The notes under the pieces: model-generated
What the model saw: the letters and a program-made list of their open reading frames with translations, nothing else
What the model was told of the DNA's origin: nothing
Databases searched by the model: none
Assembly: GCA_965205265.1 (NCBI GenBank)
Contig: CBDBGH010000003.1
Span: 5,399,553 to 5,463,552 of the forward strand
Reading direction: 5' to 3'
Length of the DNA: 64,000 nucleotides
Source: Alphaproteobacteria bacterium
GTDB taxonomy: Bacteria > Pseudomonadota > Alphaproteobacteria > Bin95
Part shown: piece by piece, positions 44,330-57,571 of the stretch
Layout: the number at the start of each line of letters is the position of its first letter
How positions within the stretch are numbered: position 1 is the first letter of the stretch
Position numbers and translations under genes: made by a program

Positions 44330-47280
44330 TGGTTGCCTCGATCGGCGCGGTCGCGAGCCCGTCCCAGGGGGCGCACTACTACGAGGCCGATGGCTACTAC
44401 GCGAAGGACTCCCTCGAACATCGCGCCGCCAGCGCCTGGGCGGGCCGGGGCGCCGAAGCGCTCGGCCTGTCCGGTCCGGTCGATCCCGATGCGTTCAGGG
44501 CGGTGCTGGAGGGTGAGGTGCCGGACGGCTCGGGGAAGCGTCTCGGCCGCCGCATGGGCGAGGACGGGATCGTCCACCGGCCCGGCCGCGACCTGACCTT
44601 CAGCGCGCCGAAGAGTGTCTCCCTCGCGGCTCTGGTCGGCGGCGACGGGCGCATCGTGGATGCCCACGACCGGGCGGTCGGGCGCGCGCTCGACCGGTTC
44701 GAGAGCAACGCCGCCGAGACCCGGGTGCAGGACAGGTCGACCGGCCGCATGGTCCGGGCCGGCGATCAGAGGACGGTGGTCGCCCGGTTCAGGCACGAGA
44801 CTTCCCGGAACCTCGATCCGGCGCTGCACACCCATTCGGTGATCGCCAACATGCTGCTCGGCCCGGACGGGAAATGGCGCACCATGGCGAACGAGAGCCT
44901 GTACGCCTCGAAGATGCTGCTGGGCGCGCTCTACCGCAGCGAGCTTGCGAGGGAACTGACATCGCTCGGCTACGGCATCGAGCGGACCCATGCCGACGGG
45001 CGCTTCGAGATCGCGGGCGTTTCCCGCGAGGTCATCGAAGCGTTCTCGACGCGCCGGGCCGAGATCGAGGCGGCGATGGCGGGCCGGGGCTTCGGGTCGA
45101 CGGCGGAGAACCAGCATGCCGCCCGCCGCGCGGCGCTGATGACGCGGGCGGCGAAGCGCGATGTGGACCGGGAGGCGCTGCGCGAGACCTGGGCCAAGCA
45201 GGCCGCCGAACTCGGCTTCGACGCCGGGGCGCTGGTGGCCGAGGCGGCGGCGCGGAGCCTGGGCGGTGCGGAGAAGGAAGCCGGCGCGGCGAGAGATGCG
45301 GACCTGTTCGAGCACGCGGCGCGGGCGGACCCTGCGAGGGAAGCGGTGGACTGGGCGCTGGCCCATCTCTCGGAGCGCGATGCGGTGTTCGCCAGGACCG
45401 ACCTGCTCGCGGCCGCGCTTGCGTACAACCCCGGCGTGGCCTCCATCGGCGAGATCGAGCGGGCCGTCGCCGGGCTCCGGCGCGAGGGCCGGCTGCACGA
45501 CGCGCCGGCGTTTGAGCAAGGCGGCGGCCTCACCACCGACAGGGCGGTGGCCGACGAGCGCGAGACGATCGCGCTGATGCGCGGCGGCGCGGGCCGGGGC
45601 CGTGCGCCGATGCGCGGCTGGAGGGTGGACCGGCATCTCAGGAAGGGACCGCTCACGGCCGGGCAGCGGGAGGCGGTGAAGCTCATTCTCTCGGAGAAGG
45701 ACCACACGGTCGGGGTGCAGGGGTTCGCCGGGACGGGGAAGACGCGGATGCTGAACCGCGCCCGGGCGCTGGCGGAGAAGAAGGGCTGGCGCATGGCGGG
45801 CCTCGCCCCGTCGGCCTCGGCGGTCCGCACGCTGGCGGCGGAATCGGGCATCGAGAGCGAGACCCTCCAGCGGTTCCTCGCGAGGAACGCCGGCGTCGCC
45901 GAGGGCAGGCTGACGAAGAAGGGCGCGAAGGACATGCGCGCGGCCTTCGCGAGGACCGTGCTGGTGGTCGACGAGGGCTCCCTCGCTTCCACCGTCCAGG
46001 CCCGCGACCTGCTCAGGATCGCCGCCGCCATCCGCATCCCGAAGCTGGTGCTGGTGGGCGATGCGAAGCAGCTCGACGCCGTCGATGCCGGCAAACCGTT
46101 CGCCCAGTTGCAGCAGGCGGGCATGAAGACCGCGGTGATGGACGAGATCCTGCGCCAGCGCGACCCCGGCCTGAAGGCCGCCGTCGAGGCGAGCCTCGCG
46201 GGCGAGATCGCCACGGCGTTCGACAGGCTCGGCTCCCATGTCGCCGAGGTGAAGCCCGACAACATCGCCGGCGCGGTGGCGGCACGGTGGCTCGCGCTCT
46301 CGCCCGAAGAGCGGGAGCGCACCGGGGTGATGGCGCCGAGCCATGAGTTGCGCGAGGGCATCAACGCCCATATCCGCGAACGCCTCGCCCGCGAGGGGCG
46401 CATCGCGGGGCCGGTCCTGCAAACCCGGCGGCTGGTCTCGAAGGACTACACGCACGCGGAGAAGGCGCTCGCCTCCAACTATGCCCCCGGCGACGTGGTC
46501 GCCTTCCACCGTCCCTACAGGCGGCTCGGCGTGGAGAAGGGCGACGAGCGCTGCGTCATGGGCGTCGATCGCAAGGCCCGCGCGGTGCTGCTGGACGACG
46601 GCCACGGCGGCCGGGTCGCCTGGAAGCCGTCGGAGATCGGCGGACGCAAGGGCGGGACCGAGGTCTACCGCGCCGAAACCGTCGAACTGCGCGCCGGCGA
46701 CCGCATCCGCTGGACCCGCAACGACAGAGGATTGGGACTGGTCAACTCCGGCACAGCCGAGGTGATCGGCGTGCGCAACGGGCGGGTGACGTTCCTGCTG
46801 GAGGAGGGGCGCAGGCTCACCCTGACCCCGGGCGATCCCCAGCTGCGCCATCTGGATCATGCCTGGGCCGCGACCGTGCATGCATTCCAGGGCCGCACCG
46901 TCGACAACGTGATCGCGGCGATGGAGGCGAACCACCCCAACCTGACCACCGCCAAGGCGTTCTATGTCGAGATATCCCGCGCCCGCGACCGGGCGGAACT
47001 GGTCACCGACGACGCCCAGGCGCTGAAGGAACGGCTGGAAGCGGTCACCGGCGAGCGCCTCTCGGCCCTCGAAGGCATCGGCGAGAGCCTCCGCCCGGAA
47101 CGCGAACGCGGGCGGGAAAAGGACGGGAAGGCGTCGCTCGACAGAGAGCGGGTGAGTGCCGAGACGTCGTCGCCGCACCCCCCGGTGCGGGATATCGAGC
47201 CGTTTCCGGCAAGGGACAAGGCGCCGGAGCCCGAACCGCCCGCCACGGGCAAGCGGATCGAGATGGACCTCGGGATGTAA
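44329..47280 (+). CDS. MobF (TrwC/TraI-type) relaxase-helicase
   Basis: HYYEADGYY, DLTFSAPKSVS, HETSRNLDPALHTH; helicase GFAGTGKT, VVDEGSL, TVHAFQGRT, YVEISRAR. Confidence 0.95.
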   Translation: MVASIGAVASPSQGAHYYEADGYYAKDSLEHRAASAWAGRGAEALGLSGPVDPDAFRAVLEGEVPDGSGKRLGRRMGEDGIVHRPGRDLTFSAPKSVSLAALVGGDGRIVDAHDRAVGRALDRFESNAAETRVQDRSTGRMVRAGDQRTVVARFRHETSRNLDPALHTHSVIANMLLGPDGKWRTMANESLYASKMLLGALYRSELARELTSLGYGIERTHADGRFEIAGVSREVIEAFSTRRAEIEAAMAGRGFGSTAENQHAARRAALMTRAAKRDVDREALRETWAKQAAELGFDAGALVAEAAARSLGGAEKEAGAARDADLFEHAARADPAREAVDWALAHLSERDAVFARTDLLAAALAYNPGVASIGEIERAVAGLRREGRLHDAPAFEQGGGLTTDRAVADERETIALMRGGAGRGRAPMRGWRVDRHLRKGPLTAGQREAVKLILSEKDHTVGVQGFAGTGKTRMLNRARALAEKKGWRMAGLAPSASAVRTLAAESGIESETLQRFLARNAGVAEGRLTKKGAKDMRAAFARTVLVVDEGSLASTVQARDLLRIAAAIRIPKLVLVGDAKQLDAVDAGKPFAQLQQAGMKTAVMDEILRQRDPGLKAAVEASLAGEIATAFDRLGSHVAEVKPDNIAGAVAARWLALSPEERERTGVMAPSHELREGINAHIRERLAREGRIAGPVLQTRRLVSKDYTHAEKALASNYAPGDVVAFHRPYRRLGVEKGDERCVMGVDRKARAVLLDDGHGGRVAWKPSEIGGRKGGTEVYRAETVELRAGDRIRWTRNDRGLGLVNSGTAEVIGVRNGRVTFLLEEGRRLTLTPGDPQLRHLDHAWAATVHAFQGRTVDNVIAAMEANHPNLTTAKAFYVEISRARDRAELVTDDAQALKERLEAVTGERLSALEGIGESLRPERERGREKDGKASLDRERVSAETSSPHPPVRDIEPFPARDKAPEPEPPATGKRIEMDLGM

Positions 47281-47385
47281 TGTGTGCGGACGGCAGCTCC
47301 TTTGCGGTCGCTTGTCCCGAGGCGCGAAGCACGATGAAGGTCATTTCCTGGAACAGTACCAGCACGCGCTCGCCGAGCCGTAATA

Positions 47386-50300
47386 GCTGTAGTTGCTCTC
47401 CGAAACAGCATTGGCTACAGTCGCGCGAAGCCGCGCCGCACCAGAGCCCGCGCTGTAGTTGCTCTCCGAAACAGCATTGGCTACAGTGAGACGTTCGACA
47501 TCGTCGGGTGCGCTTATGCTGTAGTTGCTCTCCGAAACAGCATTGGCTACAGTACCGAATGCGGCATTGAGACATACGGTTAGGCTGTAGTTGCTCTCCG
47601 AAACAGCATTGGCTACAGTGCAATGGCGAGGCTGCGCGCCAGCATTCCGGCTGTAGTTGCTCTCCGAAACAGCATTGGCTACAGTAAGGATGCGGCACTC
47701 CTGATCGCGGAGGTAGCTGTAGTTGCTCTCCGAAACAGCATTGGCTACAGTCCGGCGCGGACAGCACCCGCTCCGAGACGCGCTGTAGTTGCTCTCCGAA
47801 ACAGCATTGGCTACAGTCAGCTTCCACGAGTGGCACCGCGCCGACAGGCTGTAGTTGCTCTCCGAAACAGCATTGGCTACAGTACCGGCGACAAGTGCGT
47901 AATCGAGTTCAGAGCTGTAGTTGCTCTCCGAAACAGCATTGGCTACAGTGTGAAGACGATCCGGTCGCCTTCTCCAGGGGCTGTAGTTGCTCTCCGAAAC
48001 AGCATTGGCTACAGTCGCAGCACCCGCGAGTACGACGCTGCGCCCGCTGTAGTTGCTCTCCGAAACAGCATTGGCTACAGTACGGGACGGCCGATCTTGC
48101 TCTCCGACGCCGCTGTAGTTGCTCTCCGAAACAGCATTGGCTACAGTTGCACAGGCACACAGGGCAAATGCCGGAAGGCTGTAGTTGCTCTCCGAAACAG
48201 CATTGGCTACAGTGATCGCCGAATCCAAGCCGCCGCCACCGGTGCTGTAGTTGCTCTCCGAAACAGCATTGGCTACAGTTCGCCATTGCCTGCTTGCGCG
48301 TGGGATAGCGCTGTAGTTGCTCTCCGAAACAGCATTGGCTACAGTGTCCACGTCGAGCACCGCATCGCGTAGCCGGCTGTAGTTGCTCTCCGAAACAGCA
48401 TTGGCTACAGTGAACAGCCCGTTGACCGCGCCTGCCGTGACGCTGTAGTTGCTCTCCGAAACAGCATTGGCTACAGTTGGAAGTAGGGGGTTGGCCCGGC
48501 CCGGCATGCTGTAGTTGCTCTCCGAAACAGCATTGGCTACAGTGAACGGCGTGAAACAGATCGACCGATCCCAGCTGTAGTTGCTCTCCGAAACAGCATT
48601 GGCTACAGTCTCGCGGAGGTCGTCCCAAGTCCGGACTTCGCTGTAGTTGCTCTCCGAAACAGCATTGGCTACAGTGAAGTGCTGATGGAGTCGAGCGATG
48701 GCTGAGCTGTAGTTGCTCTCCGAAACAGCATTGGCTACAGTGCGTCGCGGTCTCGATAGGCGGCAGGACGGGCTGTAGTTGCTCTCCGAAACAGCATTGG
48801 CTACAGTCGTTGGCGGTGCATCCGCCAGCTATGGATGGCTGTAGTTGCTCTCCGAAACAGCATTGGCTACAGTCCTGCGGCGAGAGCGGCGAGTGGTTCG
48901 TATGCTGTAGTTGCTCTCCGAAACAGCATTGGCTACAGTCAGCAGACGCCGCGCGGAATCGGTCTCGACGCTGTAGTTGCTCTCCGAAACAGCATTGGCT
49001 ACAGTCCACCACCGGCGGACATCGGCGGCATTCGGGCTGTAGTTGCTCTCCGAAACAGCATTGGCTACAGTCCACCACCGGCGGACATCGGCGGCATTCG
49101 GGCTGTAGTTGCTCTCCGAAACAGCATTGGCTACAGTGCCGGCCGAGGGTGCGCCGACTGTAGGCGTGCTGTAGTTGCTCTCCGAAACAGCATTGGCTAC
49201 AGTTCCCGGTGGCGATGCCTATGTCGGCGGTAGGCTGTAGTTGCTCTCCGAAACAGCATTGGCTACAGTCCGAAGCTTCCGGGCGCGGGACCTTTGACGG
49301 CTGTAGTTGCTCTCCGAAACAGCATTGGCTACAGTCGCCTGGCCGTAGACGTGCGCCGTACCGTAGCTGTAGTTGCTCTCCGAAACAGCATTGGCTACAG
49401 TCAGGCCTCCCGCAACCTCGTACGCCGCTATGCTGTAGTTGCTCTCCGAAACAGCATTGGCTACAGTTATCTCGACCAGCGTGGCGGTCCGGTATATGCT
49501 GTAGTTGCTCTCCGAAACAGCATTGGCTACAGTCATCGACGCCGCGGGCTTGGTAGTGAGTTCGCTGTAGTTGCTCTCCGAAACAGCATTGGCTACAGTG
49601 TCGACAATCTGCTCGAAGGAAGGAACAGCGCTGTAGTTGCTCTCCGAAACAGCATTGGCTACAGTCGCACCGGCATATCCTGACACATGGTACGCGCTGT
49701 AGTTGCTCTCCGAAACAGCATTGGCTACAGTGATGGTCGCGGCAAGGTCCCGGCTCATCGCGCTGTAGTTGCTCTCCGAAACAGCATTGGCTACAGTACC
49801 CGCGCACATCCGTAGACGCGTGCGTTAGCTGTAGTTGCTCTCCGAAACAGCATTGGCTACAGTCGCATCGTCGTGGACAAACGCATTGCCGTAGCTGTAG
49901 TTGCTCTCCGAAACAGCATTGGCTACAGTGCCGTCATCAACGGCGCTTACGTAGGCTTTGCTGTAGTTGCTCTCCGAAACAGCATTGGCTACAGTGTGAA
50001 GATGACCCGGTCGCCTTCTCCAGGGGCTGTAGTTGCTCTCCGAAACAGCATTGGCTACAGTAAAGATGAGGGTAGACCCCAATGCACCCCCGCTGTAGTT
50101 GCTCTCCGAAACAGCATTGGCTACAGTCGCCTGGTCGCAGACCCACGCAGCGTCAAAGCTGTAGTTGCTCTCCGAAACAGCATTGGCTACAGTTGAAGTG
50201 GGAGCGAAGGCGCATCCGCAGTTGCTGTAGTTGCTCTCCGAAACAGCATTGGCTACAGTCGCCAAGCTCATATCGCAGCGTCGAGATATGCTGTAGTTGC

Positions 50301-50589
50301 TCTCCGAAACAGCATTGGCTACAGTATGGTAGCGGCGTTCGGAGAACAGGCATATGCTGTAGTTGCTCTCCGAAACAGCATTGGCTACAGTCTCCTCCGC
50401 GAAGACGACCTGGTCGTCACAGCTGTAGTTGCTCTCCGAAACAGCATTGGCTACAGTCGGGCCGCGTAAGCATGCCGAAAAGAGTTCGCTGTAGTTGCTC
50501 TCCGAAACAGCATTGGCTACAGTCGACGAAGCTAATTGAAGGGCCGTAACCATGCTGTAGTTGCTCTCCGAAACAGCATTGGCTACAGT
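47386..50589 (+). CRISPR. Type II-C CRISPR array: 49 x 36-nt repeats, 48 x 30-nt spacers
   Basis: Repeat GCTGTAGTTGCTCTCCGAAACAGCATTGGCTACAGT at a strict 66-nt period; + orientation inferred from G-U pairing with the tracrRNA. Confidence 0.99.
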
Positions 50590-50596
50590 ACTCCGT

Positions 50597-50627
50597 GCCC
50601 AACCCGTTGAAAATCAACGGGTTGGGC
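50597..50627. terminator. Perfect 14-bp hairpin in the leader between the array and cas2
   Basis: GCCCAACCCGTTGA-AAA-TCAACGGGTTGGGC between convergent transcripts. Confidence 0.55.
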
Positions 50628-50660
50628 CGATTCTTGGCACAGGATTCGCAGCCGGGGCTA

Positions 50661-50993
50661 TCAGAACAGGGCCAATTGGTCGGGCTTTTTCTCCGTTTCG
50701 GCGGGAGCCCGGCCCTCGAAATTGCGCACCATGCCGAATTGCTTGTCGGTGATGAAAATGATCGAGACCTTCCCCATGGGCGGCACGAAGCCGCCGACCC
50801 GGACGGCGGCGGCGTCCGCTTGGGCCCGTGTGAGGAAGTAGCGAGTATAGACCGACCATTGCTTCATCGCGAATCCTTCGTTCAGCAGGCGGTGACGAAA
50901 GCGGGTCGCGTCGCGCCGCTCTTTCGACGTTCCTACGGGCAGGTCGAAACACACCACAAGCCACATCGCCCTGTAACCGGAAACGGCCTCCAT
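50661..50993 (-). CDS. cas2: CRISPR-associated Cas2
   Basis: SGYRAMWLVVCFDLPV, FAMKQWSVYTR, ITDKQFG. Confidence 0.95.
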   Translation of the reverse strand: MEAVSGYRAMWLVVCFDLPVGTSKERRDATRFRHRLLNEGFAMKQWSVYTRYFLTRAQADAAAVRVGGFVPPMGKVSIIFITDKQFGMVRNFEGRAPAETEKKPDQLALF

Positions 50994-51039
50994 CCAAAGG
51001 CCGGCCCGGCCGCGAAAGCGCTGTCGGACCAGCCTGCGC

Positions 51040-51966
51040 TCACGGGCGGTCGGCAAAGTCGAGTTCGGTTTGCGCCACAAGACCCCAGTCGAGCGGCCAT
51101 GACAAATCCGCCGCCTCTCCCGTGCAAAGCTCCGCCAGGGAGTGGGCCAGCATCGACATGACGCGCGAGACGGTGTGCGCTCCCGCCGACGTCGCCATTG
51201 CGCCGTTGACGACCAGCGCCAATTCCCGTTTGGCCGCCGTGTCCACTTCCCCGGTCCAGTGTTCCCGGTTGCGCCAGACTACGTGGTCCACGAGAGGTCG
51301 GAACGGCTCCATCAGGTCGTCCACCAGTTGGAAGGCGTTCAGGCGGCTGCGGTGATGCAAACCCAGCCCGGGCGCCAGGCCCGCTCCGACCACGGCGCGG
51401 GCCATGGCGGAGCGAACGACCGCATAGCCGTAGTTCAAATGGGCGTTGAGACCGTTGCCATTGGGGTCGCGCCGGAAATCGCTACCCATCAACCGCCGCC
51501 AGTAGAAACGCGCGGCGCGGGCTTCCACATTGTCCGGGTCGCCGGATCGCACCGACCTCGCAAGCCTTGCAAGGCGCATGTGGTCGGGCTGTCCCACAAT
51601 CTCCAGCGCCCGCGCCTGCGAGGCGATTTTCGCCATGACCAGCCGCCGCCAAAGCTGCTTGCGCCTGGGCAGGGACAGGGATGCCTGAGCGGTCAGCCGC
51701 GCTGCCTGCTCGAAATTGCCAGACACAGGCAAAGACAAGGCCACAGGCGCATGGTTGCGGCCGCACAGTACAAGGGGAATCCCCGCTTCGGCCAACGCCG
51801 CGCCCAACGACAGGGACAGCATCGCGCTATGGCCGTGCACGAGAACGCACTGGATGTCCGAAAGCGGCACCCGGCCCAATTCGCCGCCGTCGCCGGAAAC
51901 CTTCAGGCTACCCCTCGACAGCGAGAGAACGCGGTTTTCGTCGGCGATATCGACGACGCGCCACAT
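51040..51966 (-). CDS. cas1: Type II CRISPR-associated Cas1
   Basis: GDPDNVEARAARFYW, LNYGYAVVRS, LGLHH, FQLVDDLMEPFRP. Confidence 0.96.
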   Translation of the reverse strand: MWRVVDIADENRVLSLSRGSLKVSGDGGELGRVPLSDIQCVLVHGHSAMLSLSLGAALAEAGIPLVLCGRNHAPVALSLPVSGNFEQAARLTAQASLSLPRRKQLWRRLVMAKIASQARALEIVGQPDHMRLARLARSVRSGDPDNVEARAARFYWRRLMGSDFRRDPNGNGLNAHLNYGYAVVRSAMARAVVGAGLAPGLGLHHRSRLNAFQLVDDLMEPFRPLVDHVVWRNREHWTGEVDTAAKRELALVVNGAMATSAGAHTVSRVMSMLAHSLAELCTGEAADLSWPLDWGLVAQTELDFADRP

Positions 51967-51968
51967 CG

Positions 51969-54900
51969 TCAGTTGAGGCGGGGGCCTCGCCAGCGCACGC
52001 GGCCCGTAGGGTCGCACAGCACCATTGCCGGCGCGCGTTCCGAGAACCCCTTCTTGTTGCTGATCCTTACATGCTTCGGCGGTCTGCCGGAGCGCGCCTC
52101 CTCGACGGGCACAAATTCGAGATCGGGATTATCCAAGCCGGAGAACGAGACCGTGCGGTAGAGGCGGCGCGGCGAGGCTAGGTCCTTCGGGTCGACCGCC
52201 ATTTCCACGAGATCGTTCCTCCGCAGAACGAACAGCCGCCGCCCGCCCTCGCGGCGCCATCGTTCCTGGAACCCCGGCGTATTGGCGTCCAGGGTCGAAA
52301 CAACTTCGATATCCCGGTCCCCTTCGCCATTCACGAAATAGACCAGACGGTCGTTCCCTCTCGTTCGGTTGGCCTGTCTGGGCCTTTTGCCGGGGTCCAA
52401 CGGGCCTTTGAGAACGCGCAGGGAGACAATCTGGACCCGCGTAAAACGGCGGCGTCCGGTTGTTTCCACGATGTACCGCTTTTTCGCCCACTCCGCCCGC
52501 GCCTTTTGCTGGCCTCTGGCCGTGCGCGCGTTTTCCAGAGCCTCGGGTGGCGCTTCCTGCATCAATTCGAGAAGCCTGGCACGCATCTTCTCCAAATCAG
52601 GGGCCAGATTATTGCGCAGGGAAGACACGGGGTCGTGTCCGCCCCACCAGAAGCGCGCGCCCTGCTCCTTCGCTCGCTCGACAGCCCGGATTGCGGTTTC
52701 GGGCACACCGAGCTTCTCGATTTGTTTCACCTCCAATTCCGAAATCGAGACATGGTCCCGGGCGACATATTTGTCCCGCTCGCCCGGGACTTCGCATATA
52801 AGGCCGTAGTTCGTCGCTTCGTGCAGTTGGCCTCGCGGATCGTGATCGGCCTTCACGACCACGGCGGTGGCGGGCGGTTTGTCCGTCGCTTCGGCGGGTC
52901 TCCAGCCTTCCAGAAAAGCCTTTACTGTCCTCCGAAACCCATCCTGCCAACATATGCCAATATTCTCAAAGTTCGGTTCGGTGTAACGAATTTGGGCCAG
53001 AATTTCTCTGGCGCTCTCGTTGCCTGTATCACGCGCCGCCAGCGTCTGGAGGCGCTGCACATCGCTTCGGGTTGTGCAGGCGGCAACGACCGCGTCCAGC
53101 AAGTGGTGCCGATGGTCCCAGCGTACCTTGTCGGCGCGTTTGAGGCGCGCTTGCCTTTCCTCGAGAGTTTCACCGTCTCTGGGGGACAGAATATCGCCGA
53201 TATCAAGCCGTCCTTCCTCCACCATTATGTCTCGGATTACGGTATGGAGGCCCCACAAGTAGCGGAGGTCCGACGTGATTCGACCATTCAGGCTGACGAC
53301 GCCGTTATCCGGGTCTTTGCATACGCAAGACAGATAACGCGCCGCCATTCTTGCAATGTAGCGCGTATCGTTGAGGAACCTGCGTTGGAATTCTTCCCGG
53401 TCCTCGTAACGCTTCATGGCATCCTCTTTGAAACGCCAATACACGCTCCCGCCGCGGAGCTTCGCGCGCTTGAGGATATGCTCATAGTCCTTGCCCTTGT
53501 ATCCACCGCTGAATGCCTCGAAAGGAGGCCTCTTGCGTTTGAATTGATTGGCTTCCTTGAACACTAAAGCCAGATTGGGGATGCCGTCGTCTCCGGTCGT
53601 GGCGTAAGGCAGTATATGGTCGATCTCAACCGACCCGTCGAAAAGGTGCTCCATGCAGATCGGTTCTCCCGTGTACAGGCATTCCCCGCCCTGCATTCTA
53701 TGGAGTCTCATTCGTTTCAGGTCTTCGGGTTTGAGCTTGCGCTTATGGGCGCCCAGAGACTCGATATGCGCTTCGTTCTCCTTACGGTTTTTGAGATTCT
53801 CCTTTTCGGCGTTGTCACGCTCCTCGGCGCTCCTGTTCAGGTCGCGGGCCAGTTCGATGCAGATTTGCGCAGGCTTGCCGTAGAGCTTCAGATAATCGTT
53901 GGCGGTCTTGCGTAGCTGGTTGAGTGCCACATGGACGACCGGATTCGAAATGCGGCCTAGACGGGCTTCGTCGGCGTCTCCGGGCGCACCGCTTCCCCCG
54001 ATGCACCATCCTTGCAGGACTTCCCCGTAGTAGGGCAACCGATCGAGACTTGGCGGTTCCTGATCGAGAGATTCGAGTCCGGCCCGCTGTTCTGCTTTGT
54101 CGTGCGGGATGACCTCTGCTTCCAGTTCAGCCAGCAGCTTCCGGGTCGCCGTCGCACCGGCGGCGGAATGGGCGGCGGGCAGGCGTGCATCCGAAAGCAC
54201 CTGAATGGCGTCCGGCGGCAGGTCGAGCTCTTTCAATTTGGTGTTCAAGATGTCCCGGTCGTCTTCCGTGCGTACAAGACTTGCGATCTTTTCACGCCGC
54301 TCCTCATCGAAACCCCGCCACTGTTCGAGCGCATCCGCCTTGCTCATGGCGGCGGCAAGCGGATGGCCCTTGAGTTCGCCGGCCGTTTTCCTGCCTTTGC
54401 GCCGGATATCCAGACTGGTCATGTCGGCCAGCGCGCCGCGCCTCAAACCCAGCGCTGTGCGCACTCCCGCCGCAGTCAGGTCCTGCCCATCGAGCAACAG
54501 GAAGGCAAGACGGTCGCGCTGCGCCATATCCAAGGGCCGTTCCGCCGCCGTTCGCGACGATATCAGACGCAGATTGTTCACTTCCTCGTAGATGCGCTTG
54601 CGTTGAAACAAGTCGCTGCCGCGCGACAGCCGCGTTTCGATTTCACCATCGGCGCCGCGGACGCCGTAGCGGCATTTGCCGATGGACGGCGCTTTCGGCT
54701 CCGCTTCCTCGAACACCATCTCCCTGAGTTGCTCGCAAGCCATGTCCGTTAGCGCTTCGTGGTAAGGCTGTTGAGTCTCCAGCAGCGCGTCCAGTTCCGC
54801 CTGCATCATGGGGCGAGTGAAGACCGGCATCCCTTCCCGGTCTTTCTTCAGCCGGGTCGTTCTCCTCTTGCCGGCCTTGCGCATTAGCAATTGCGAGGGG

Positions 54901-55421
54901 TGGGCGGGGCCGTCGAGTCCCAGCCTTTCGCCGAGCGCCGCGAGTTCGTTTTTTGTCGTGTTGGCCGTGTGCGCCATGGACTGGCGTTCCCTGGCGCTCT
55001 TTTCCTGTTGCTTGGCGTCGGCCTTGGAGTCGTCCCTGAGCCCCCGTGTCAGGCGCTGGCCCCGGTTCTTCGCGATATGCAGGATGGCGCGGGCCAGATC
55101 GCCGGCTTTCAAGCGGCTCTCAAGGCCCTTCGCCCGCAGCGGGACACGCTCGGTACTGCGTCCCGCAGGGGTGTCGGAGAAGCCGGGACCGAGGTTGAGC
55201 AGGCGAACGAGATACGCGCGCAACGCCTTTACCCGGTCGGCGCGGCGGCCGTATTGCGTCCGCATGGATTTGTGGCGGGTCCGCCCCGCCCCGCCTGTGG
55301 GCGCGGGATAAAAGAGCGCAACGCCGTCGATCAGCCGTGCCGGGCGGTTCGCCGTATCCAGTTCGATGACTGCGAAGCCGAGACTGCCGACGCCGACATC
55401 GATGCCCCATCCGACCTTCAT
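51969..55421 (-). CDS. cas9: Type II-C Cas9, ~1150 aa
   Basis: RuvC-I GIDVGVGSLG, RuvC-II IELARDL, HNH EIDHILP..NLALVFKEANQFK, RuvC-III HRHHLLDAVV; no csn2 or cas4 in the locus. Confidence 0.95.
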   Translation of the reverse strand: MKVGWGIDVGVGSLGFAVIELDTANRPARLIDGVALFYPAPTGGAGRTRHKSMRTQYGRRADRVKALRAYLVRLLNLGPGFSDTPAGRSTERVPLRAKGLESRLKAGDLARAILHIAKNRGQRLTRGLRDDSKADAKQQEKSARERQSMAHTANTTKNELAALGERLGLDGPAHPSQLLMRKAGKRRTTRLKKDREGMPVFTRPMMQAELDALLETQQPYHEALTDMACEQLREMVFEEAEPKAPSIGKCRYGVRGADGEIETRLSRGSDLFQRKRIYEEVNNLRLISSRTAAERPLDMAQRDRLAFLLLDGQDLTAAGVRTALGLRRGALADMTSLDIRRKGRKTAGELKGHPLAAAMSKADALEQWRGFDEERREKIASLVRTEDDRDILNTKLKELDLPPDAIQVLSDARLPAAHSAAGATATRKLLAELEAEVIPHDKAEQRAGLESLDQEPPSLDRLPYYGEVLQGWCIGGSGAPGDADEARLGRISNPVVHVALNQLRKTANDYLKLYGKPAQICIELARDLNRSAEERDNAEKENLKNRKENEAHIESLGAHKRKLKPEDLKRMRLHRMQGGECLYTGEPICMEHLFDGSVEIDHILPYATTGDDGIPNLALVFKEANQFKRKRPPFEAFSGGYKGKDYEHILKRAKLRGGSVYWRFKEDAMKRYEDREEFQRRFLNDTRYIARMAARYLSCVCKDPDNGVVSLNGRITSDLRYLWGLHTVIRDIMVEEGRLDIGDILSPRDGETLEERQARLKRADKVRWDHRHHLLDAVVAACTTRSDVQRLQTLAARDTGNESAREILAQIRYTEPNFENIGICWQDGFRRTVKAFLEGWRPAEATDKPPATAVVVKADHDPRGQLHEATNYGLICEVPGERDKYVARDHVSISELEVKQIEKLGVPETAIRAVERAKEQGARFWWGGHDPVSSLRNNLAPDLEKMRARLLELMQEAPPEALENARTARGQQKARAEWAKKRYIVETTGRRRFTRVQIVSLRVLKGPLDPGKRPRQANRTRGNDRLVYFVNGEGDRDIEVVSTLDANTPGFQERWRREGGRRLFVLRRNDLVEMAVDPKDLASPRRLYRTVSFSGLDNPDLEFVPVEEARSGRPPKHVRISNKKGFSERAPAMVLCDPTGRVRWRGPRLN

Positions 55422-55485
55422 GAAAAGTCCCCGACAGCAAGATTCCGAGAATATGTTGACTTGCGCGCGGGACTGGTGCAAGCAT

Positions 55486-55616
55486 TGGCTGCTGTTTTGG
55501 AGAGCAGCGGCGTAAAGCTGTGCAACTGCTTGCAGTAGCAACTACAGTAAGGCAGCTTTCCATGGAGGGCTGCCAGACGAATATGGGGAGAGACGTTGTC
55601 TCTCCCCTCTCGTTTT
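55486..55616 (+). ncRNA. tracrRNA with split anti-repeat
   Basis: TGCTGTTTTGGAGAG (55490-55504) and AGCAACTACAGT (55537-55548) are complementary to the repeat; then AAGGCAGC..GCTGCC hairpin and GGGGAGAGAC/GTCTCTCCCC hairpin plus TTTT; TTGACT upstream at 55456. Confidence 0.85.
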
Positions 55617-55627
55617 ATCGCCCGTTA

Positions 55628-56108
55628 CTGGAGGAGGGGCGCAGGCTCACCCTGACGCCGGGCGATCCGCAGTTGTGCCATCTGGATCACGCACGGGCCG
55701 CAACCGTGCATGCCTTTCAGGGCCGTACGGTCGACAACGTGATCGCGGCGATGGAAGCGAACCACCCCAACCTGACCACGGCCAAGGCGTTCTATGTCGA
55801 GATATCCCGCGCGCGCCCGGGCGGAGCTGGTCACGGACGACGTGCAGGCGCTGAAGGAGCGGCTGGAAGCGGTCACAGGCGAGCGCATCTCGGCCCTCGA
55901 AGGCATCGGCGAGAGCCTCCGCCCGGAGCGCGAACGCGGGCAGCAAAAGGACGGGAAGGCGTCGCTCGACAGGGAACGGACGAGCCCGGAGGCGTCCGCG
56001 CCGCACCAGCCGGCGCGGGAAATCGAGCCGGTTCCGGCAAGGCACAAGGCGCCGGAGCCCGAGACGCCGGTCCAAGAGAAACGCATCGACATGAACCTCG
56101 GCCTCTGA
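55628..56108 (+). pseudogene. Duplicated 3' end of the MobF relaxase (direct repeat of 46798-47280), frameshifted
   Basis: LEEGRRLTLTPGDPQL...IDMNLGL*; roughly 90% identical by eye; 2-nt deletion near 55817. Confidence 0.92.
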
Positions 56109-56243
56109 TTGCAGCCTTCGGGACCTCCTTTCGGACTTCCCCGGACGCGGTCCGCTCCCGAACATCGATGGAATCTCGTGGCGGACTCGCAATGTCCTTG
56201 TCTCGGGCGGCAGATCGAATGCGCACATCCATCGCCCGGATCT

Positions 56244-56630
56244 TCACGCCGGGCCCTCGCCCATCGTCTCCGTCATGCTCCTGCGGGCGGCGGCGACGAG
56301 GTCGTCGAGCTCTTTCTCGCGTTCGACGTCGAGCATCTCCTCCCGGTCGAGCGTCGCCATCACGTAGACGAGGCGGTAGATCTCCTCGATGAGCGCGGCG
56401 TGGCCCTTCGACAAGGTGGCCGGGGGAAGCTCACCCAGGCGGTCTTCGGCAGCGGCGACCGCGCTCGACCGCACGAGTTCGCCGGGGGACATGCCGTGCC
56501 GCGCGGCGGCCCGCCGGATCAGGTCCCACTCGGAATCGGAGAAGCGGGTCGAGCGCTGCCGGCGCGCATTGCTCCGGTTCTCCGCAGGTTTCTTCCCGGT
56601 CTCGGGATTTTTCCGTTCCTTTCCCGCCAT
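56244..56630 (-). CDS. Ribbon-helix-helix relaxosome accessory protein (MobC/TrwA-like)
   Basis: RSTRFSDSEWDLIRRAAARHGMSPGELVR; adjacent to the relaxase end. Confidence 0.7.
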   Translation of the reverse strand: MAGKERKNPETGKKPAENRSNARRQRSTRFSDSEWDLIRRAAARHGMSPGELVRSSAVAAAEDRLGELPPATLSKGHAALIEEIYRLVYVMATLDREEMLDVEREKELDDLVAAARRSMTETMGEGPA

Positions 56631-57571
56631 CCCTTCTGCCCTTTCCAGATCGAACTGTCCGCCGGCCGCAATGAAATTCCGGCCCTGAAACAGCACGCCG
56701 GCGGCCCGTTTGCGGCCGGGCCCGGTCCGCCCCACAGGGCCGCCGTACCCTTCTTCATCCGCCCCGCCGGCCACCGCTGCCGAACGCCCTGAAGGGCGCC
56801 GCCGCGACCCGGATGCCGGTCCCGGGGGCGTGTTGTTTCCGTGTTTCGAGAGCCTGCACGGCGAACACACGGTCACGCGCCCTGGCGCAAATCGCAACCA
56901 CCCTGACTGCTTTTGGCGGCAGGTGCGCGCTGGACTGCGCCCCGGTACGACGATCCGGCGAACACAAATCGGTGGCGCTCGATCCGCGTTGCGCCGGCAG
57001 GATTCTGGCGGCGCCTGTCCACTCCTGGCGGTGCCAGGCAGCGCCTGTCATCCCATGCCGCAACCCGCAGGGGACCTGCGTTCCGGTGTGTGGACCGAGA
57101 CGGGCGCGGGCCCGTCTGAGCACGATTTGCGATGTATGAGCGATGGGGGAATCGGCGCCGGCGAATACGGCGGCTCGGAGCCTCCGCGGCGCCTGATGCG
57201 GGCGGCGGTGGCGACACCACGGAGGGACGAAGTGTCGAGCGCGGCGCCGGGGGCGGTGCCGGCGGTTCCGACGGGAGCGCCGTCACGAGGATCGGCGGGA
57301 GTGCGGGGAGCGATGCAGGCGACAGCGCGCGATGGCGGCGACAGCCGCAAGGCGCTGCTGCCTTGGCCGGCGATCGGGCTGGCGGTCGCCAGCACCGACG
57401 GCGCTGCCGGAGATGCCGATCACGGTGTCGATCGCGAGCGGGGCCCCCGATCGTGGTCCGGGGCAGGGCGAAGCGCCCGTGCGGATGGCGTTGCCGCGCG
57501 AAGTGTGTGCGCAAGAAGAAGCGGACCGCGCCGCCGCCGGAGCGACGGTGCGGCCCGCGCTGCGGTGCGGC

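Follow-up and report, generated by a model that had tools for sequence, protein, structure and literature searches.

The locus described here raises the question of how a Cas9 guide is built, and whether it works, when the anti-repeat of its tracrRNA is split in two by a segment that is predicted to fold on itself. The window, i.e. the whole stretch of 64,000 nt that was analysed, holds a complete type II-C locus consisting of a CRISPR array, cas2, cas1 and cas9 (Table 1). csn2 and cas4 are absent from the locus, since the gene order array-cas2-cas1-cas9 leaves no space for another gene. The assignment to type II-C follows from the presence of only cas9, cas1 and cas2 and from a compact Cas9, which is related to solved II-C enzymes and keeps the catalytic residues: in the PDB, it best matches Cas9 chains of 1055-1095 amino acids, and D8, H602, N625 and H772-D776 fall into columns that are invariant among 34 relatives. 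The repeat reads GCTGTAGTTGCTCTCCGAAACAGCATTGGCTACAGT on the + strand and is the same in 49/49 copies. Because it pairs with a + strand tracrRNA, the + strand is also the crRNA sense, and crRNA transcription runs toward cas2. An array that is read toward the cas genes, against the degenerate-repeat rule, is a likeness to Neisseria meningitidis (Chylinski 2013, PMC3737331, in the portion of the text available).

Table 1. Coordinates of the features of the type II-C locus, given as positions of the window
Feature	Position	Strand	Remarks
CRISPR array	47386-50589	+	49 identical 36-nt repeats, 48 spacers of 30 nt, 66-nt period
cas2	50661-51080	-	Pfam CRISPR_Cas2, E 5e-14
cas1	51040-52017	-	Pfam Cas_Cas1, E 4.6e-29
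cas9	51969-55421	-	1150 aa, start MKVGWGIDVG; domains RuvC_III, HNH_4, Cas9_a
Codons of the bridge-helix/REC1 boundary	55140-55240	-	deletion of about 14 residues after codon 81 (about 55179)
-35 box TTGACT	55456-55461	+	predicted; TTGAC invariant in 7/7 aligned loci
-10 box AAGCAT	55480-55485	+	predicted from the alignment, weak; 18 nt past the -35 box
Upstream (distal) anti-repeat block	55490-55508	+	pairs with repeat nt 7-25
Lineage-specific insertion, 34 nt	about 55509-55542	+	gap columns in all 7 other rows of alignment A1
Nexus-side (proximal) anti-repeat block	55537-55548	+	pairs with repeat nt 1-12; lower stem, first pair G1-U
AA junction and nexus hairpin GGCAGC...GCTGCC	AA 55549-55550, hairpin 55551-55574	+	
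Terminator hairpin and U run	hairpin 55585-55607, U run to 55616	+	10 pairs

Immediately upstream of cas9 and on the opposite strand, the segment 55486-55616 carries the tracrRNA gene, which is divergent from cas9 and extends on the + strand from about 55491 to 55616. Two blocks, located about 70-130 nt upstream of cas9 and outside the array, are complementary to the repeat: 55490-55504 is the reverse complement of repeat nt 11-25 and 55537-55548 that of repeat nt 1-12, each with one C>T change that gives a G-U pair in RNA. In the proximal block, this is the pair G1-U, which adds to a perfect Watson-Crick match of 11 nt. Pairing of the distal block can be extended to 55508 with a second wobble at U8, and repeat nt 7-12 are able to pair on either side of the interruption. 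An earlier note on this DNA had described the two blocks and their G-U mismatches as well as an Nme-like junction, a further hairpin and a terminator downstream of them; all of these features were found again, the blocks by direct reading, with a script and as the top two matches (E 0.002 and 0.034) when 50700-57000 was searched with the repeat by blastn-short. For Rho-independent terminators, two sites were found versus 0.3 expected. The G-U pairs and the U run place the RNA on the + strand. A start of the tracrRNA near 55491 would be implied by the predicted -10 box; a consensus promoter scan found no promoter at its threshold. The sequence AGCATTGGCT at 55481-55490, which overlaps the predicted -10 box, is the same, in direct orientation, as nt 22-31 of the repeat (E 0.13) and could be a chance match or a trace of the origin of the tracrRNA gene from a repeat.

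The match of the two blocks to the repeat is not due to chance, because it is homologous, position for position, to the tracrRNAs of related cas9 loci. Seven related tracrRNAs, six of them distinct, come from three genomes and four metagenome contigs (L002/G011, L003/G049, L019 = L037, L031/L051, L038 and L050/L052). The Cas9 relatives encoded in G011 and G049 are 70% identical to the Cas9 of the window, and a further close locus, found in a MAG by a scan of genome contigs (L019), encodes a relative with 59% identity. The 18-mer GCTGTTTTGGAGAGCAGC of the distal block is identical in all kin, and a metagenome scan with it returned 32 loci, six of which are tracrRNA-like (L031/L051, L037, whose tracrRNA is the same as that of L019, L038 and L050/L052); two others belong to arrays of a related system, and the remaining matches are due to chance. 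The metagenome contigs L047 and L048 carry arrays whose repeat holds the 18-mer in reverse orientation and has a C instead of the U found at position 8 in the window and its kin. Relatives of cas9 are rare among the genomes searched: at an E value of 1e-100 or better, they were found in 2/37 genomes of the order (G000, the assembly that contains the window, and G011), in 2/401 genomes of the class sample (G000 and G049) and in 1/7 genomes of the order of G049.

All kin have, in the same place divergent from cas9, a TTGAC -35 element, the 18-nt block, CTACAGTAAG, the nexus hairpin and the terminator. For comparison, alignment A1 was used for the insert columns and A3 for the 3' part; A2, a MAFFT alignment of a trimmed set, was not used, as it misplaced the anti-repeat of the kin onto the insert. 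In A3, 93.8% of the cells are paired and 10/20 pairs show changes on both sides, values that were reached by 0/500 shuffles, and slid partners gave 56-63% pairing; RNAalifold reported both-sided changes in 9/20 pairs of the 3' part, and helix 1 of the nexus has them in 6/11 pairs. The covariation looked for across homologous loci is thus present in the 3' hairpins; the insert itself is missing from all seven kin. Synteny, homology, covariation of the hairpins and the terminator argue, at the level of sequence, that 55491-55616 is a tracrRNA gene. A search of 46000-57000 against Rfam at E values up to 10 matched no tracrRNA family; however, this carries little weight, because the tracrRNA model of Rfam covers Streptococcus-type tracrRNAs. 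The features of a type II tracrRNA are present, namely an anti-repeat next to the cas operon, the initial G-U pair, the AA, the GG of the nexus, a terminator and covariation. An initial G-U pair, an AA junction and a GG at the base of the nexus form the general type II pattern (Faure 2018, PMC6546382, as excerpted). None of the runs that hold the stretch is on record as RNA, the tracrRNA region had no match in plasmids, the 18-mer was absent from the viral contigs, and Cas9 gave plasmid matches of 28.5% identity only.

The anti-repeat is uninterrupted in 7/7 kin, which read ...GGAGAGCAGCTACAGTAAG... in this region, whereas that of the window contains 34 extra nucleotides. The earlier note had given the insertion as 32 nt, which is the distance between the two blocks; the net insertion relative to the kin, however, is 34 nt, with edges that are ambiguous by one or two bases. 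Since 0/7 kin carry these 34 nt, the insertion is specific to this lineage. Arrays were read for two of the kin and have the repeats ACTGTAGTTGCTCTCCAAAACGGCATCCGCTACAGT (G011) and GCTGTAGTTGCTCTCCAAAATCTCACGGACTACAGT (G049), from which, together with the contiguous anti-repeat, it follows that the duplex of these two is free of bulges and has a wobble at U8. All kin have a G opposite U8, whereas the nexus-side block of the window has changed to GCAAC and offers an A; the upstream block has retained GCAGC. The insert is identical to the 34 nt immediately upstream (55475-55508) at 18/34 positions without a gap, a score reached by 0.08% of the 34-mers of the neighbourhood and by 0.045% of shuffles (p about 5e-4), and to the 34 nt downstream at 9/34 positions. 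The simplest origin, and at moderate confidence the probable one, is that the 34 nt in front of the insert were duplicated in tandem in this lineage and that the copy then diverged for a long time.

In the whole assembly, the insert is found only at two copies of the locus, all other matches being 17 nt or shorter with E values expected by chance; a repeat element or MITE of the genome was therefore rejected as its source. A natural single guide of the tracr-L type, in which GCUGU of the insert would mimic the start of the repeat, was rejected as well, as only 5 bp of self-pairing are available; by eye, there was no target for the would-be guide, and its best stray match was 14 nt long (E 0.7). 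Logan contigs of the runs X1, X4 and X5, which stem from three studies and one of which may be the source of the assembly, cover at least 55300-55688 with 0 differences. A contig of 181 nt from run X13, which was guessed to be RNA, matches 55504-55540 with 3 mismatches and then continues with CTACAGTAAGGTAACTTTCCATGGAAAGTT, where the window has CTACAGTAAGGCAGCTTTCCATGGAGGGCT; in its nexus helix, read by eye, one G:C pair has become A:U and two G-U pairs have become A-U, and pairing is kept. Its presence in contigs of several studies and in a diverged allele shows that the insert is genuine and of some age.

How the two blocks could pair with the crRNA was addressed by co-folding. In the partition function, the proximal block takes up repeat nt 1-8 (P at least 0.91) and the distal block nt 13-24 (P about 1), while nt 9-12 are divided between both; the insert pairs with no base of the repeat and is predicted to form two short hairpins. 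Co-folding thereby yields the four-way junction that the earlier note had proposed, with a migrating branch point at the position of the Neisseria-type bulge; however, the junction is a prediction, and the fold of the insert alone (-11.6 kcal/mol) is matched by 5.6% of shuffles, so that its hairpins are not statistically notable and selection on them is unsupported. The likeness to the N. meningitidis guide extends to several details. In the printed Nme sgRNA, a lower stem of 8 bp and an upper stem flank a small internal loop, and AA-GGC comes after them (PMC6594998). Its lower stem opens with a G-U pair as in the window, its anti-repeat ends with ...CTACAAT-AA-GGC compared with ...CTACAGT-AA-GGC, and the insert lies, by eye, at the position of its internal loop. 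For the Nme duplex, a 'central bulge' after about 8 bp is described in the accessible text of Chylinski 2013 (PMC3737331). In the printed Nme sgRNA, the loop measures, by eye, 4 nt versus 5 nt, whereas the window has a self-folding segment of 26-34 nt on the tracrRNA side only. The two Cas9 proteins are distant from each other: phmmer gave an E value of about 1e-41 to 6jdq, which we take to be Nme1Cas9.

The reading that we favour, at somewhat better than even chances, is a working type II-C tracrRNA with a tolerated branch; its transcription start, folding, Cas9 binding and activity are inferred. The crRNA repeat would pair without a gap, nt 1-8 (up to 12) with the nexus-side block and nt 13-24 (from 9) with the upstream block, while the insert would fold on itself and turn the usual position of the bulge into a four-way junction. 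As in other II-C enzymes, Cas9 would be expected to grip the AA-GG nexus, the 3' hairpins and a proximal stem of about 12 bp; the upper stem and the branch would face away from it, so that the insertion would be tolerated. In solved II-C complexes, the protein grips the proximal part of the duplex only. In AtCas9, the bridge helix, REC1 and WED hold the proximal 12 bp, and full activity is reached with a duplex of 14 bp (preprint 10.64898/2026.01.30.702744, in the part available). NmeCas9 makes few contacts to the distal half of the duplex, which is reported to be dispensable (PMC10516666, excerpted text). The junction at bp 8-12 lies at the edge of the protein-held stem, which makes tolerance plausible but not certain; it is possible that a branch at this place clashes sterically with Cas9.

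The same observations on the duplex bear on a different reading, in which only the proximal block is used: the tracrRNA would start or be trimmed within or after the insert, leaving a stem of 12 bp, and everything upstream would be leader. A 14-bp duplex that is sufficient for AtCas9 and a distal half reported to be dispensable for NmeCas9 would suit it, as far as the excerpts of these two sources go, as would the free-RNA fold, in which ACUACAGUAA is single-stranded and could serve as a landing site. Furthermore, if the insert is a diverged copy of promoter-proximal DNA, it holds a copy of the -10 region, AAAGCT (by eye). However, no -35-like box was seen by eye at the correct spacing from AAAGCT, the promoter scan found none, and the co-fold pairs the upstream block with the repeat at a probability of about 1. 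Moreover, the upstream 18-mer is unchanged relative to kin whose Cas9 proteins are 59-70% identical, whereas the insert has dropped to 53% identity to its presumed source; an 18-mer that stays constant beside a diverged insert points to continued selection on the upstream block. We consider it distinctly unlikely that the proximal block acts on its own.

The earlier note had suggested that the branch may contact a diverged REC lobe. A database search gave 79 Cas9 relatives, 34 of which were aligned (near-full-length, down to 55% identity). At the boundary of the bridge helix and REC1, the Cas9 of the window is without the segment FD..(.)PDL..DG.., which is carried by the relatives outside its subclade: the segment is missing in 13/34 proteins, the Cas9 of the window and P0003-P0014 (76-91% identity), and kept in 21/34. 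The conserved motif that follows, RRNNSRVRLRA in the kin, reads GRSTERVPLRA in the window, and residues 61-120 are the most diverged stretch of its Cas9, with identities to kin of 0.57, 0.50 and 0.43 compared with 0.70 between L002 and L003. Since the deletion occurs in 13 full-length proteins, it is older than the strain and has been maintained, and all columns that are invariant in the 34 relatives are conserved in the Cas9 of the window. The loss of about 14 residues after the bridge helix provides a lead for the REC-lobe proposal, in which the contact is a putative one. Among the loci for which both sequences are at hand, the window has insert and deletion and five distinct kin (L002, L003, L019/L037, L038 and L050/L052) have neither, an association that is suggestive only. 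The deletion could be an adaptation or, equally, damage.

It is tempting to speculate that RNA and protein co-adapted, in that the branch occupies, or touches, the gap that the 14-residue deletion has left after the bridge helix, or makes the pair of Cas9 and guide orthogonal to the guides of relatives or to guide mimics. Both changes co-occur in the window while the five distinct kin show neither, the deletion lies where the bridge helix meets REC1, and the proximal duplex of AtCas9 is gripped by bridge helix, REC1 and WED (as excerpted from the preprint cited above); residues 61-120 are, moreover, where the Cas9 of the window has diverged most from its kin. However, a single lineage set against its relatives has no statistical weight, the deletion is common to 13 proteins while a tracrRNA is in view for one of them, and the length of the loop in the window resembles that of the best solved homologues, so that a short loop is normal in II-C enzymes. 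Co-adaptation of this kind is quite improbable in our estimate, and it is improbable, too, that the branch and the loss of 14 residues represent one co-evolutionary change and that the whole subclade of 13 proteins uses a guide with a four-way junction. If such co-evolution were true, an element of RNA would stand in for a protein contact of the subclade or re-route it, and the pair would be orthogonal to neighbouring systems with Cas9 or to phage RNAs that mimic guides.

Another reading is that the insertion has crippled the tracrRNA by disturbing the loading of Cas9 or the pairing with the crRNA, and the locus is decaying or performs poorly. Such an insert is present in 0/7 related tracrRNAs, its hairpins are statistically unremarkable, the junction sits at the edge of the lower stem held by the protein, and the Cas9 of this lineage is without a conserved segment of 14 residues and has an altered RRNNSRVRLRA motif; a long array could also fit a Cas9 that is short of guide RNA (PMC12477760, excerpted text). 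Against this stands the state of the locus: cas9, cas1 and cas2 are intact, the invariant columns of the 34 relatives are all kept, and 49/49 repeats are identical. Likewise, both blocks are intact, the proximal one even being improved to a Watson-Crick pair at U8, the insert persists in a diverged allele whose downstream changes preserve structure, and Cas9 proteins of the deletion type are full-length in 13 cases at 76-100% identity. A crippled tracrRNA is therefore, in our view, unlikely.

The array provides a further view on the history of the locus. In assembly G000, the locus is present in two copies with identical cas9 and tracrRNA. Spacers 1-3 of array A, which is the one in the window, equal spacers 1-3 of array B, and A27-41 equal B8-22; the arrays diverge at the cas2-proximal end, with 7 versus 4 unique spacers. 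Since the arrays differ at this end and the tracrRNAs are identical, spacers were gained after the insertion arose. The end at which spacers are gained lies downstream in the crRNA sense, a polarity that has also been noted for N. meningitidis and C. jejuni (Chylinski 2013, PMC3737331, available portion). According to the excerpted text of PMC12477760, Cas9 plays a part in acquisition that does not involve its RNAs, and spacer gain may thus not depend on the tracrRNA. No protospacers were found in phages or plasmids, so that no PAM could be derived. Five spacer matches to the own genome are all partial; the best one, of spacer B23 from the second array, comprises 28/30 nt at C3:3410504-3410531, and spacer A10 matches C3:3411754-3411776 at 22/23 nt, about 1.2 kb from the match of B23. 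The chromosomal region matched by B23 and A10 resembles the genes of a conjugative element beside the CRISPR locus. In the array of the window, spacers A25 and A26 are the same, A9 and A40 differ at 2/30 positions, and A30 and A42 have their first 7 nt in common; the near-duplicates suggest that the same site in related targets was sampled repeatedly.

Several observations concern the DNA around the locus. The window forms the final 64 kb of contig C3 and is a mosaic of duplicates, near-identical (96.7-99.95%), of sequence from elsewhere in C3. The second copy of the locus is inverted, with C3:3774960-3804820 corresponding to 32876-64000 of the window, and its array is shorter, partly scrambled and has 27 exact repeats. 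The contamination estimate of G000 is 7.28%, and the assembler may have joined two strain variants, which then appear as 'copies'. The cassette is bracketed by direct copies of about 476 nt at 46798-47273 and 55628-56101 that are 88.7% identical; the copy past the tracrRNA sits in an ORF with a weak match to UvrD_C_2 (26.5 bits versus a cutoff of 27.4) and seems to be what is left of the C-terminus of a conjugative relaxase/helicase. An element of 1.9 kb at 735-2651 has about 60 near-identical copies across C3 and is presumably an insertion sequence in massive expansion.

The interruption of the anti-repeat was also compared with those of other guides. The claim of the earlier note that it is unusual holds: the insert is present in 0/7 kin; of 13 other cas9 loci of the class, nine have an array in the fetched stretch, and the best anti-repeat blocks of these are contiguous and 18-24 nt long. 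The largest interruption read elsewhere, by eye, is 10 nt opposite 5 and occurs in one family. This family, a second II-C family of the genus, is represented by a third cas9 of the genome (C3:5128244-5130454, in the region C3:5123310-5130529), which is 30% identical, has its own array of 12 repeats and its own tracrRNA and is also found in four other genomes of the genus (L060-L063). Its guide has a lower stem of 6 bp and an upper stem of 22 bp with an asymmetric loop on the tracrRNA side between them, akin to the window; however, this loop of 10 nt opposite 5 repeat nt forms no hairpin (by eye). Insertions that are lineage-specific like that of the window are known from some Streptococcus tracrRNAs, in which 18 nt were inserted into the nexus loop; this insert was judged harmless, as the base of the helix is kept, and the nexus was described as an insertion hot spot (Faure 2018, PMC6546382, in the part of the article available). 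In contrast to the Streptococcus insert, which lies in a hairpin loop of the tracrRNA alone, the insert of the window lies within the intermolecular helix of repeat and anti-repeat. The excerpted text of the same article describes an anti-repeat made of 'two discontinuous sequences' for type V-B tracrRNAs; however, these tracrRNAs serve Cas12b, an effector of another class, carry the anti-repeat at their 3' end and have no nexus, which makes this likeness an analogy only. Described variation of Cas9 guides comprises bulges, a fully complementary clade and nexus insertions (PMC3737331, PMC6546382, PMC7606464, PMC9486595 and the Dooley preprint, each as available in part); surveys also record variation of the 3' hairpins. 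A branched Cas9 anti-repeat was not found in the literature searched, which was available in part, and supplementary sgRNA drawings might show large bulges. The tracrRNA of the window thus appears, from its sequence, to be a rare natural variant, with a branch in the anti-repeat that is not described for Cas9 in the literature searched.

Should the branched tracrRNA work as we favour, it would mark a place, at the bulge of a compact II-C guide, at which a natural insertion is tolerated and into which aptamers or sensors could usefully be put. It would also mean that the gene can be mis-placed by tracrRNA finders that look for one unbroken anti-repeat adjoining the nexus. The earlier note had expected that anti-repeat searches could miss it. 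BLAST ranks both blocks first; however, a pipeline of the CRISPRtracrRNA type allows at most 10 nt between the anti-repeat and the structured tail (PMC9486595, excerpted text), and since it demands this spacing, the upstream, stronger block would be flagged as inconsistent. If the system does not work, it would be an example of a type II system that fails via its RNA and not via its protein. If it works, the insert and the deletion in Cas9 would provide a small and tractable case of RNA-protein co-evolution.
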